A stretch of 64,000 nt of DNA, taken from NCBI GenBank assembly GCA_031423155.1, contig JANPEZ010000113.1:814-64813 (forward strand), read 5' to 3'. Of the stretch, positions 31,469-33,923 are shown piece after piece. Source of the DNA: Actinomycetes bacterium. Lineage in GTDB: Bacteria > Actinomycetota > UBA4738 > HRBIN12. A model generated the notes under the pieces. That model made no database searches. It had not been told where the DNA came from and worked only from the letters and a program-made list of their open reading frames with translations. The translations under genes were made by a program, and so were the position numbers. Position 1 is the first letter of the stretch. Each line of letters opens with the position of its first letter.

Positions 31469-31563
31469 GGCGGCAAGAACCCTACAGACACTCCGCTTGT
31501 TCCCGCGTGCTATCTTCAAGCCCTCGCCACGGATCGCGTGGCCCGACCCAGGAGGTGGGATCG

Positions 31564-31626
31564 ATGACTGCTACGACGGTGGTTGTCGCGTCGCGCCCTC
31601 GCTGCGGTCGTTACAGCTTCTCCTGA
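31564..31626 (+). CDS. Putative 20-aa leader peptide [20 protein letters not shown]
   Basis: AGGAGGT SD at 31550-31556, 7 nt before the ATG; stops 59 nt upstream of the RNHCP gene. Confidence 0.55.
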
Positions 31627-31637
31627 TCGACTCCTGA

Positions 31638-31679
31638 TCCATGGGCACGACGGCGTATCCCACCGTGTTCCATGGAGGT
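31638..31679 (+). promoter_or_regulatory. SD-sequestering hairpin (translational attenuator) for the RNHCP gene
   Basis: TCCATGG-GCACG (31638-31649) pairs with CGTGT-T-CCATGGA (31664-31676), covering GGA of the GGAGGT SD (31674-31679). Confidence 0.5.
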
Positions 31680-31685
31680 CATCCT

Positions 31686-32057
31686 TTGTCACGCGACCAA
31701 CGCCGCGGCGAGCGGCACAACCGAACATCGTTCCGCTGCGGCAACTGCCATCTCGAGGTGCCGTATCAGGCGATCGGCACCGCTCACCGCAATCACTGTC
31801 CGAACTGCCTGTGGAGCCGTCACGTGGATGAGGACCACCCCGGAGATCGAGACTCCGATTGCGGCTCTCTCATGGAGCCCATCGCCATCACCGTTCGAGG
31901 CGACGGTGAGTGGGTTCTGGTTCACAGGTGCGGCGGATGCGACGAACTGCGCCTGAACCGCGCAGCGGGCGACGATAACCCGCTGATGCTGTTGCGCCTG
32001 GCCGTGAAACCCCTCGCCCAGCCGCCCTTCCCGATCGAGCGGATCGGGCTGATCTAG
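31686..32057 (+). CDS. RNHCP domain-containing protein
   Basis: FRCGNC...HRNHCPNCLWSRHVD..PGDR..DCGSLMEP and HRCGGC. Start placed at TTG 31686, 6 nt after GGAGGT. Confidence 0.92.
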   Translation: MSRDQRRGERHNRTSFRCGNCHLEVPYQAIGTAHRNHCPNCLWSRHVDEDHPGDRDSDCGSLMEPIAITVRGDGEWVLVHRCGGCDELRLNRAAGDDNPLMLLRLAVKPLAQPPFPIERIGLI

Positions 32058-32085: not shown

Positions 32086-32535
32086 ATGCCGCGGATCGCC
32101 GCGACGTCCCCCCGTCGCCTAATCGTGCTTCTCCTCATGATGCTCGCACTCTTAGCTGCTGCAGCCCCGGCCTCGGCGGGGGGCTTGCGGGGCAAGATGC
32201 TTCGCCTGATCAACGACGAGCGCCGCTCGCACGGAGTGGGCGCCCTCGTCCTGGACCTTCCCGCGTCGCGGATGGCAGGTCGCCATAGCCAGCGGATGAG
32301 CGAGCGGAACCTGCTCTTCCATACGCCCAACCTCGACGTGAAGCTCGCCGATCGGCACTGGAGGGTGCTCGGCGAGAACATCGCCTTCGGCTCGAGGGTT
32401 CGCGGCATCGTCCGGATGTGGATGGCGAGCACCGAGCACCGCGCGAACATCCTGAAGGCCGGCTACCGAAGGATCGGTATCGGGCTCTACCGGGGTCGCG
32501 GACATCTCTGGGCCACCACGTACTTCTGGGGCTGA
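32086..32535 (+). CDS. Secreted CAP (SCP-like) domain protein
   Basis: Signal peptide, LINDERRSHG, HSQRM, GENIA and WMASTEHRANIL; leaderless TAGACT-N7-ATG. Confidence 0.88.
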   Translation: MPRIAATSPRRLIVLLLMMLALLAAAAPASAGGLRGKMLRLINDERRSHGVGALVLDLPASRMAGRHSQRMSERNLLFHTPNLDVKLADRHWRVLGENIAFGSRVRGIVRMWMASTEHRANILKAGYRRIGIGLYRGRGHLWATTYFWG

Positions 32536-32585: not shown

Positions 32586-32846
32586 ATGGCGACGATAACG
32601 CTGCGAGCTCCGCTGAAGGACCTGGCCGGGGGTTCCTCCGAGATACAGGTTCCGGGCACCACCGTGGGAGAGGCCCTTCGAGCGCTGGAGGACGGCCACA
32701 CCAAGCTGACGGGATGGATCTTGGATGAACGTGGCCGGATCCGCCGGCACGTGAACGTCTTCGTAAACGGAGAAAAGGCCGGGGAGGACGTGGTTCTCGC
32801 CCCGGGCGACCGAATGCACGTCCTTCCCTCGATCTCAGGAGGCTGA
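32586..32846 (+). CDS. MoaD/ThiS family ubiquitin-like protein
   Basis: RRHVNVFVNGE and C-terminal LPSISGG. Confidence 0.9.
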   Translation: MATITLRAPLKDLAGGSSEIQVPGTTVGEALRALEDGHTKLTGWILDERGRIRRHVNVFVNGEKAGEDVVLAPGDRMHVLPSISGG

Positions 32847-32852
32847 AGCGAG

Positions 32853-33923
32853 ATGACCGAACTGCTCGTCGGAACCAGGAAAGGTCTGTTCGTCTTGCGG
32901 GGGGATATCGGCGAGCCGTTCGAGGTCGCCACTCGCGCCTTCCCCGGCGAGATCGTCGAGTTCGCAACTCGCGATGCCCGTACCGGTCGCACTTTCGCAT
33001 CGGTCACTCACGGTCAGTTCGGCCCGCGGCTGATGTTCACCGACGATCCGGTCGGCGGCGAGTGGCAACAGGCCGAAGGCCCGGTCTTCCCCGCAGACAC
33101 CGACACCGCCGTCGAACGGATCTGGATCGTCCAGCCCGGCGAAGCAGAGGGCGTGCTCTACGCGGGGGTCGCTCCCGCCGCGCTGTTCGTATCCACCGAC
33201 GACGGCCAGACCTGGGCGCTTAACCGCGGACTTTGGGACGCGCCAACCCGCCCGGAGTGGAACCCCGGCGCTGGGGGCCTTGCGCTGCACTCCATATGTC
33301 CCTGGCCCGGCGATCCCGAGAAGCTCGCGATCGGCATCAGCGCCGCGGGCGTCTGGATCACCGAAGACGCCGGCCAGACGTGGCGAACCGGCTACACGGG
33401 ACTGGAAGCGGGCTACTTGCCCGAAGATCAGCGCGAGAACACTCACGCGCTCTGCGTTCACAACATGCACCGGGCTCCTCGCAGGCCCGAGCGGCTATTC
33501 ATGCAGTTCCACGGAAGCGTCTACCGCTCCGACGACGCGGCCGAAACCTGGAGCGACGTCACGGCCGGTCTACCCTCCGGCTTCGGGTTCCCCCTCACGA
33601 TCGACCCGGCGGATCCGGACAACGCCTACGTGATCCCAATGATAGGAGCCGAGGACCGGGTCACGCCGCAGGGACAGGTCCGCGTCTTCGCGACGCGTGA
33701 CGGCGGAACTTCCTGGTCCTCAGCCTCCGAGGGCCTGCCTCAACGCGATGCCTGGCTGACGATCCTTCGCCAGGCCTTCGGTTCGCAGAGCGAGGGCCCC
33801 GGGCAGAGCCTGGCGTTCGGCGCAACGTCAGGTGCCGTCTACGCCTCCAAGGACGCCGGCTCGACCTGGTCCGTCGCGGCCGAGCGACTTGCGCCGGTCA
33901 CTTCCGTCCGTTTCCCATGCTAG
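32853..33923 (+). CDS. BNR/Asp-box beta-propeller protein (WD40/YVTN/BNR-like)
   Basis: Repeated S/T-x-D-x-G-x-T/S-W boxes: STDDGQTW, TEDAGQTW, SDDAAETW, TRDGGTSW, SKDAGSTW. No signal peptide. Confidence 0.85.
   Translation: MTELLVGTRKGLFVLRGDIGEPFEVATRAFPGEIVEFATRDARTGRTFASVTHGQFGPRLMFTDDPVGGEWQQAEGPVFPADTDTAVERIWIVQPGEAEGVLYAGVAPAALFVSTDDGQTWALNRGLWDAPTRPEWNPGAGGLALHSICPWPGDPEKLAIGISAAGVWITEDAGQTWRTGYTGLEAGYLPEDQRENTHALCVHNMHRAPRRPERLFMQFHGSVYRSDDAAETWSDVTAGLPSGFGFPLTIDPADPDNAYVIPMIGAEDRVTPQGQVRVFATRDGGTSWSSASEGLPQRDAWLTILRQAFGSQSEGPGQSLAFGATSGAVYASKDAGSTWSVAAERLAPVTSVRFPC

Follow-up and report, generated by a model that had tools for sequence, protein, structure and literature searches.

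The control of a gene through an open reading frame upstream of it (uORF) that is coupled to sequestration of the downstream Shine-Dalgarno (SD) sequence by alternative pairing is a well known kind of mechanism. An element of this kind is described here in a 64,000 nucleotide (nt) stretch of DNA from an Actinomycetes bacterium (assembly GCA_031423155.1, contig JANPEZ010000113.1, positions 814 to 64,813 of the forward strand), which is referred to as the window. Positions 31508-31690 of the window are the promoter and 5′ leader of a gene encoding an RNHCP-family protein. A preliminary description made from the window alone had taken this leader for a leader-peptide translational attenuator, and comparison with relatives bears this out, since a uORF, an SD hairpin and an alternative helix are conserved in both Actinomycetota and Chloroflexota. 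On this comparative footing the leader is read as an attenuator that is coupled to its uORF and follows 1:2/3:4 versus 2:3 logic. The interpretation that we favour, and to which we give about an even chance (roughly 0.5), is that it acts as an RNA switch gating initiation of RNHCP translation and would be turned on by a ribosome at early codons of the uORF. The leader was not found described in the literature; what is new in the libraries searched is this instance of a leader, its conservation across phyla, its independence of the encoded peptide and the family of its target.

The leaders of the erm genes (ermC, ermB and ermD) resemble the RNHCP leader in having a uORF with its own SD, a buried SD for the main gene and a uORF segment that competes for one arm of the hairpin (1:2/3:4 versus 2:3). 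They differ in depending on a specific peptide and a macrolide, with arrest at a defined codon, whereas the RNHCP peptide is unconserved and its conserved box is read in different frames. The RNHCP target is also not a known resistance gene, and the productive ribosome position would lie at the very start of the uORF. When the RNHCP leader is set against the features of erm/cat-type leaders, a uORF with its own SD, an SD hairpin and an alternative pairing were all found but a conserved arrest motif was not. The outline is also that of the trp attenuator, with 1:2 and 3:4 formed and the off state in the absence of translation, 2:3 formed and the on state with an early ribosome, and 3:4 formed and the off state after run-through. 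In the RNHCP leader, however, the output is sequestration of an SD rather than termination and there is no run of regulatory codons.

In the toiL leader of topAI-yjhQ in E. coli a multipurpose uORF is likewise used, and stalled ribosomes remodel the structure of a downstream ribosome-binding site (PMC12121999). That system is unrelated in sequence and target and involves Rho termination within the ORF, while the RNHCP leader is known from sequence alone. The uORF attenuation of whiB7/wblC (PMC10274678; PMC7157823) is similar in being actinobacterial, in answering to general translation stress and in having a sequence that varies between species. The likeness extends to particular lineages, as some RNHCP loci carry a WblC-type box and the Chloroflexota RNHCP leaders carry a terminator-like hairpin. 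The leader of the window, by contrast, has neither an intrinsic terminator nor a WhiB7-type box, and since it has no intrinsic terminator it appears to act on access to the SD and not on transcription. Finally, the arrest peptides of the RAPP/RAPG family (ApcA, ApdA and ApdP; PMC12992588, PMC7897499) are also products of small uORFs in Actinomycetota, and motifs reminiscent of them occur in RNHCP uORFs, with RRAPG in the Acidimicrobiales class and SRP(G/R) in the window's class. Members of that family have a C-terminal R-A-P-P/G core, arrest with P in the P site and P or G in the A site, and lie upstream of a gene of the Sec/YidC type (PMC12992588). The motif of the RNHCP uORFs is neither conserved nor C-terminal, its version in the window's class lacks Ala, and the gene that follows encodes no component of protein localisation. 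A RAPP/RAPG core was accordingly not found where that family has it: the window peptide has SRPR without RAP, and RRAPG is seen only in Acidimicrobiales and in mid-peptide.

For the comparison 160 RNHCP loci were fetched by two genome scans, of which 131 are distinct. They come mostly from metagenome-assembled genomes of soil and sediment Actinomycetota, including Acidimicrobiia and Thermoleophilia, with further loci from cultured Streptosporangiales, Jiangellales and Streptomyces and from Chloroflexota. The window's own class of leaders is called class A. The elements on which the argument depends have the following positions in the window.

31686-32057, plus strand: RNHCP-domain gene, 123 amino acids, TTG start, Pfam PF12647
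31674-31678, plus strand: SD of the RNHCP gene, GGAGG, 7 nt before TTG 31686; an invariant block of columns in the alignments
31550-31555, plus strand: SD of the uORF, AGGAGG, 8 nt before ATG 31564; median spacing over the loci, 7 nt
31564-31626, plus strand: uORF of 20 codons plus TGA (31624-31626), the tail of an ORF at 31507-31626
31588-31598, plus strand: box S1 (GCGUCGCGCCC), uORF codons 9-12, common to helices H0 and H1
31643-31652, plus strand: box S2 (GGGCACGACG), pairing with S1 (31589-31598) as the 3′ strand of helix H1 and serving also as the 5′ arm of hairpin H2
31544-31610, plus strand: predicted helix H0, uORF ribosome-binding region 31544-31572 (SD and ATG) with codons 5-16 (31578-31610)
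31629-31680, plus strand: predicted hairpin H2, a stem of 12 base pairs (bp) at 31638-31649/31664-31676 with one bulged U, and an outer 4 bp at 31629-31632/31677-31680
31620-31628, plus strand: first CTCCTGATC copy, the last uORF codons and stop; matches the conserved CUUCCUGA(U/A)C
31631-31639, plus strand: second CTCCTGATC copy, acting as anti-SD, with pairs from C31631, U31632, U31638 and C31639 to G31678, G31677, A31676 and G31675

The elements that the preliminary description had named are all present where it placed them, namely a perfect SD with a 20-codon uORF that the list of open reading frames had left out, two exact copies of CTCCTGATC, and a 12-bp stem burying the RNHCP SD. It had also proposed that the region 31540-31700 be folded and that conserved uORFs be sought upstream of RNHCP homologues. 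The fold is unremarkable (z = -0.89), and short ORFs are frequent in high-GC DNA; the window alone is no better than chance, and it is the comparison with relatives that is decisive. Conserved uORFs were found upstream of the homologues across Actinomycetota and Chloroflexota. The exact 9-mer repeat, by contrast, is particular to the window, its two copies overlying a conserved uORF end (YUCCUGA) and a conserved anti-SD (CCUCC).

An SD-preceded short ORF is present in nearly all loci, about 170 nt 5′ of the conserved FRC motif of the RNHCP gene. Under a strict automatic rule 88 of the 131 distinct loci have such a uORF spanning the S1 box, with a median length of 20 codons, and most of the loci missed by the rule show one by eye. 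Among 59 loci the start is ATG in 55 and GTG in 4, and the stop TGA in 44, TAA in 7 and TAG in 8. These 59 loci were picked for a terminating uORF, and a stop between S1 and S2 occurs in the other two frames in only 5 and 10 of them; such a stop is therefore uncommon by chance, at about 13% of frames. The uORF always terminates before H2. From the start codon to the S1 core the distance is tightly held (median 26 nt, interquartile range 24-26), and from the uORF stop to S2 it has a median of 20 nt with a range of 3-93.

The best supported pairing in the leader is helix H1, formed between S1 and S2. The nucleotides of S1 are nearly invariant, third codon positions included, and the box is present across phyla. 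Pairing in H1 and H0 was counted on 39 sequences with 500 shuffles and slid-partner controls. For H1, 94.3% of cells were paired with 18 compensatory cells, a result that none of the 500 shuffles matched and that compares with at most 50% for slid partners. RNAalifold also chose H1 as the consensus helix. The alternation of C and U in S1 covaries with that of G and A in S2 (Fisher p = 2e-4 without correction for phylogeny), and an ungapped helix of at least 8 pairs through the S1 core is found in 66 of the 131 distinct loci as against none after shuffling. Many different pairs of S1 and S2 sequences are used, such as GUCACGCC/GGCGUGAC in the Chloroflexota locus L118. A naive all-against-all scan for covariation was abandoned as dominated by G-U noise.

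Each strand of H1 has a second partner. S1 also lies in H0, so that H0 and H1 compete for it, and S2 lies in H2, so that H1 and H2 compete in turn. H0 is predicted in the minimum-energy folds of the window and of loci L013, L017 and L058; across the alignment 77% of its cells are paired against at most 49% for slid partners, and 0 of 500 shuffles reach its pairing or its covariation score. H2 is stable in the window (-22.7 kcal/mol, z = -1.99), and over 56 loci, with z-scores computed per sequence against shuffled 5′ arms, the mean z is -1.70 and the median -2.06. All five bases of the RNHCP SD are paired in H2, partly with the second CTCCTGATC copy, which sits where homologues have the conserved CCUCC anti-SD, and in the ensemble the SD is mostly paired (mean unpaired probability about 0.2). 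The register of H2 differs between loci, and because of this RNAalifold found no consensus structure in the H2 region; pair counts on a MAFFT alignment were likewise uninformative (63% versus 58% for slid partners), and the per-sequence z-scores were used in place of both. The H2 loop CGUAUCCCACC is conserved in sequence in many class A leaders. It was also observed that GGTGGGAT (31554-31561), which falls in the spacer of the ribosome-binding site of the uORF, is an exact complement, 8 nt long, of ATCCCACC (31657-31664) in the H2 loop; in other loci only GGUG:CACC of this complementarity is kept.

The peptides encoded by the uORFs differ widely between lineages. The class A peptide has the form MTxxxVV(I/V)ASRPGSGRxxxS, that of Acidimicrobiales MPRxTSAGRRAPGVxVRPSPG.., that of Streptosporangiales MPAGTExAV(A/V)RPRA.., that of Thermoleophilia M..ATEHATSRRQG and that of Chloroflexota M...V..ASRLxR... 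The box GCGUCGCGCC is read as UCG-CGC-CC in the window's class, as CGU-CGC-GCG in Acidimicrobiales and as GUC-GCG-CGC in Streptosporangiales. Variability in the class A uORF alignment is the same at all three codon positions (summed entropies 21.7, 19.7 and 21.8) with several third positions almost invariant, and no signature at the amino-acid level beyond the RNA constraint, and no wobble signature, was seen. This even variability and the change of reading frame of the box between lineages lead us to judge that selection maintains the RNA and the presence of an ORF rather than the peptide. An R to C replacement in 7 of 34 peptides falls exactly where the paired S2 base goes from G to A and is read, from this coincidence, as RNA compensation. 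Pairing with AUGAC at its start explains why the uORF has a Val-rich stretch. A branched-chain amino-acid attenuator reading the VVV/VVI run was considered and rejected, since it is their pairing with the region of the uORF start that dictates these codons, and a ribosome stalled on them would cover S1.

What the comparison shows is that the uORF is conserved, that S1 and S2 covary, that the SD hairpin is stable and that the strands of H0 pair; which state is on, which ribosome position sets it and what the physiological signal may be are inferred. In the ground state H0 and H2 would both be formed, both ribosome-binding sites would be closed and the switch would be off. A ribosome that has entered the uORF and lingers on its start codon or its first four or so codons would hold the 5′ arm of H0, and S1, starting about 24-26 nt past the AUG, would stay outside its footprint. 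Toeprints place the leading edge of a ribosome at about +15 nt, and with the median start-to-S1 distance given above the S1 core would therefore lie some 10 nt beyond the leading edge of a ribosome at the start codon. The free S1 would capture S2 during transcription, H2 could not close and the RNHCP SD would be left open; a ribosome running on over S1 would return S2 to H2 and the leader to the off state. Formation of H1 requires an occupied 5′ arm of H0 together with an unoccupied S1, and for this reason early dwelling is favoured as the on state. The signal would then be slow initiation or slow early elongation, in other words a general stress on translation, for instance from antibiotics trapping ribosomes at or near start codons, and the sensing would be peptide-independent, with no particular nascent peptide being read. 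The toiL uORF provides a precedent, as tetracycline stalls ribosomes at its start codon and this opens the topAI ribosome-binding site (PMC12121999).

Several observations weigh against such a switch. When a ribosome footprint was masked at ten P-site positions, equilibrium folding gave no clear on state, and in most sequences S2 is still more stably paired in H2; a kinetic, co-transcriptional capture of S2 must therefore be assumed. H1 has a C-A mismatch in the window itself and in 9 of the 39 sequences. An H-type pseudoknot combining H1 with the anti-SD:SD pairing is topologically possible and would keep the SD closed in spite of H1. In Chloroflexota the terminator-like hairpin stands between S1 and S2, which calls for a more complicated logic in that phylum. 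The lineage of the window itself lacks a WhiB7-type box, and a search of sequencing runs found the region only in DNA contigs from sediment metagenomes and in no RNA runs.

The constant placing of the uORF stop before H2 also suits a different arrangement, in which the uORF is constitutively translated, a ribosome reaching its stop or pausing there melts the base of H2 on the anti-SD side, and the same or another ribosome then starts on RNHCP, whose output would thus track translation of the uORF or the pause at its end. The window stop lies 4 nt before the anti-SD copy at 31631-31639, so that the footprint of a terminating ribosome would cover C31631 and U31632, and in class A the anti-SD begins about 11 nt after the stop. 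This would resemble the cat and cmlA leaders, whose SD hairpin opens as a direct effect of a ribosome on the leader. The distance from stop to S2, however, ranges from 3 to 93 nt and in Chloroflexota the terminator-like hairpin intervenes, masking a ribosome at the last codon in silico leaves SD accessibility at a mean of 0.20 against 0.18 in the free leader, and no role is left for S1:S2, the best supported helix; we regard opening by termination as rather unlikely. Somewhat harder to credit is a leader whose S1:S2 helix or H2 loop CGUAUCCCACC is bound by a small ligand or by a protein, possibly RNHCP itself, repressing its own mRNA in the manner of a ribosomal protein, with the uORF only modulating the response. 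In two phyla the conservation of S1, S2 and the H2 loop extends beyond pairing to the sequence itself, RNHCP has a basic N-terminal tail and zinc ribbons, its fusion elsewhere to RsgA, a 30S-binding GTPase, makes RNA binding plausible, and a monocistronic gene with variable neighbours is often seen among autoregulated genes. But the binding is putative, the conservation of S1 and S2 is already explained by two partners for each and an open frame through S1, no Rfam family matches, and the conserved SD, start and stop of the uORF point to ribosomes on the uORF as the primary input.

The preliminary description had itself favoured nascent-peptide arrest, in which a motif of the R/K-x-R/K type (RPR in the window), known from macrolide-sensitive arrest, would stall the ribosome at codons 11-13 in the presence of a drug and free the RNHCP SD. 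RPR does recur in three other class A peptides and Streptosporangiales have V(A/V)RPR(A/S), while RRAPG of Acidimicrobiales resembles the RAPG arrest motif of ApcA and SRPG of class A is similar. As a sensor, though, the motif fails for want of conservation: among 65 distinct uORF peptides RPR is found in 4, the window's included, and any [RK]x[RK] in 14 at scattered positions. The tracking of the R to C change with G to A in S2, the missing wobble signature and the reading of the box in different frames all tell against a peptide, and even where it occurs naturally RAPG arrest is weak and depends on context (PMC12992588). Arrest at codons 11-13 would moreover put the ribosome over S1 and leave S2 free to close H2, with predicted SD accessibility unchanged or lower; its effect would probably be to turn the gene off, the opposite of the output implied in the preliminary description. 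We consider peptide arrest very unlikely, and the switch set by a ribosome at the first uORF codons is retained as the preferred interpretation. The leader would on that interpretation be a natural example of a uORF whose peptide is immaterial and a model for comparing position-sensing with peptide-sensing attenuation.

The specificity of the leader for RNHCP genes was seen in a scan of 185,579 genomes, one per species, with a composite pattern of S1, S2 and SD. Of 29 matches 11 were true leaders and all of these lay before RNHCP; the other 18 had no uORF context and are about as many as are expected by chance. In a search of Rfam 15 the window gave only chance-level matches (E >2) and 10 representative loci gave no match at gathering score. 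The leader is a candidate new RNA family for the databases.

The product of the gene regulated in this way belongs to a family with 1,166 clusters at 50% identity in an exhaustive search, and no biological paper on RNHCP or PF12647 was found in the literature. The window protein scores 126.9 bits with the PF12647 profile, for which the gathering cut-off is 24 (E = 3e-37), and the match covers positions 2-90 of the 90 in the profile. Sequence and profile searches for relatives in the PDB gave none beyond a weak zinc-ribbon resemblance to RNA polymerase subunit P, and NCBIfam gave the same weak match. A first AlphaFold2 (AF2) model built from close homologues was poor (predicted local distance difference test, pLDDT, 59) and was discarded; one built from diverse cluster representatives reached a pLDDT of 86 but had no fold match in the PDB (best E = 0.25, template modelling score <0.3).

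Domain fusions were more informative. Among the 19 best-scoring family members of at least 300 amino acids, 18 were scanned against Pfam (P0221 was left out), and 17 of these, each from its own cluster, combine an RsgA GTPase domain (PF03193) with a C-terminal RNHCP domain (P0130, P0133, P0141, P0143, P0144, P0146, P0150, P0154-P0156, P0158, P0168, P0171, P0173, P0176, P0180 and P0187), one of them being annotated as ribosome small subunit-dependent GTPase A. In the remaining scanned member, P0196, RNHCP is fused to pentapeptide repeats. P0132 was noted to have two RNHCP stretches. RsgA is a GTPase of late 30S assembly; evidence for a tie between RNHCP and the small ribosomal subunit thus comes for the first time from this fusion.

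Also in keeping with a link to the ribosome are promoters of the WblC/WhiB7 type, in which GAAAWY stands 3 bp before a TKGMNN -35 element that is followed after 16-19 bp by TANNNT (PMC7157823). The box GAAAWY-N3-TKGM was found 5′ of the leader in 11 of the 160 loci under strict and 18 under relaxed rules, whereas a background of 0.0075 per kb leads one to expect about 0.4, an enrichment of about 29-fold. The loci concerned belong to Streptosporangiales, Jiangellales, Streptomyces and some Acidimicrobiales; the box is absent from the window and from most class A loci. In the form GAAAWY-N3-TTGC it lies about 190-320 nt 5′ of the FRC codons in L079, L081, L128, L131, L135, L139, L158, L056, L061, L077 and L156.

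The preliminary description had suggested that RNHCP is a ribosome rescue or protection factor. The connection with the ribosome finds support in the RsgA fusions and, in some lineages, in the WblC/WhiB7 boxes, while a role in rescue or protection as such stays speculative. RNHCP as a ribosome-associated factor responsive to translation stress fits these findings, and fits the terminator-like hairpin of the Chloroflexota leaders too, and the gene-specific switch, the fusion and the promoters together suggest a factor that is made when translation is disturbed; they are a first functional handle on the family. A more specific and rather doubtful proposal is that RNHCP is a 30S-binding zinc protein, a free-standing form of the C-terminal module of RsgA, induced by a peptide-independent uORF sensor of ribosomes that linger at initiation or the first codons, with S1:S2 possibly bound by RNHCP for feedback. 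If true, this would define a new response module for translation stress or 30S quality in Actinomycetota and Chloroflexota.

The leader is present once in the window and its promoter became visible only through the comparison of loci, as a generic sigma-70 promoter scan of the window gave nothing. The two features at its 5′ end are these.

31508-31516, plus strand: extended -10 element TGcTATCTT (TGnTAnnnT); a TGCTAGGGT-like element lies 26-30 nt before the GTGGCCCGACC anchor in 18 class A loci
31526-31542, plus strand: 5′-terminal hairpin P0, GCCAC (31526-31530) with GUGGC (31538-31542), conserved in class A as judged by eye

With the usual distance of 7-8 nt from a -10 element to the transcript start (PMC7157823), the RNHCP transcript probably starts at about 31523-31524. 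P0 shows the compensatory variants GCCGCG/CGCGGC and GCCGCUC/GAGCGGC (L002, L019 and L023). No terminator-like site was found in the window between 31300 and 32200. The RNHCP coding sequence most likely starts at TTG 31686 and ATG 31641 is disfavoured, because homologues open with MSRDQRRG and are called at 123-124 amino acids. A direct repeat of 13 nt, GCCCTCGCCACGG/GCCCTCGCTGCGG (31520-31532 and 31595-31607, 85% identical), joins the 5′ end of the transcript to the region just after S1. uORF codons 5-10 (31577-31591) were also seen to be 80% complementary to RNHCP codons 2-7 (31691-31705), and the first RNHCP codons (UCA and CAA, unusual in a high-GC genome) are conserved at the nucleotide level. 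A pairing between these two segments was examined and rejected, as 72% of cells were paired but there was no covariation and A-C mismatches were as frequent as expected.

Two lineages depart from the class A arrangement. In seven Chloroflexota leaders (L072, L097, L099, L113, L116, L118, where it lies at 1404-1425, and L122) an intrinsic-terminator-like hairpin is found between the uORF stop and S2. It consists of GAGCCGUCC, a loop, GGGACGGCUC and a U-rich tail, is conserved in sequence and occurs in no Actinomycetota leader, which suggests an added layer of transcription attenuation in Chloroflexota. The Streptomyces loci L085, L087 and L088 have a different leader, with a uORF that opens MP(V/R)A.. 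after GGTGTTGT, and in L085 the uORF continues, in another frame, into the RNHCP start. The hairpin of these three loci pairs CCCUGGU with ACCAGGAG, the SD, and no clear S1 or S2 boxes were recognised in them.

The gene neighbourhood of RNHCP is variable among relatives and RNHCP itself is monocistronic. In the window the uORF-bearing leader and RNHCP gene, on the plus strand, stand opposite a divergent gene for a luciferase-like monooxygenase on the minus strand that starts at about 31468. Downstream of RNHCP on the plus strand a gene for a CAP/SCP-domain protein with a signal-peptide-like N-terminus (32086-32535) starts 29 nt beyond the RNHCP stop, a neighbourhood not conserved in relatives. 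It is followed by genes for a small ThiS-family protein ending in GG (32586-32846) and for a protein with repeats of the BNR/Sortilin type (32853-33923).

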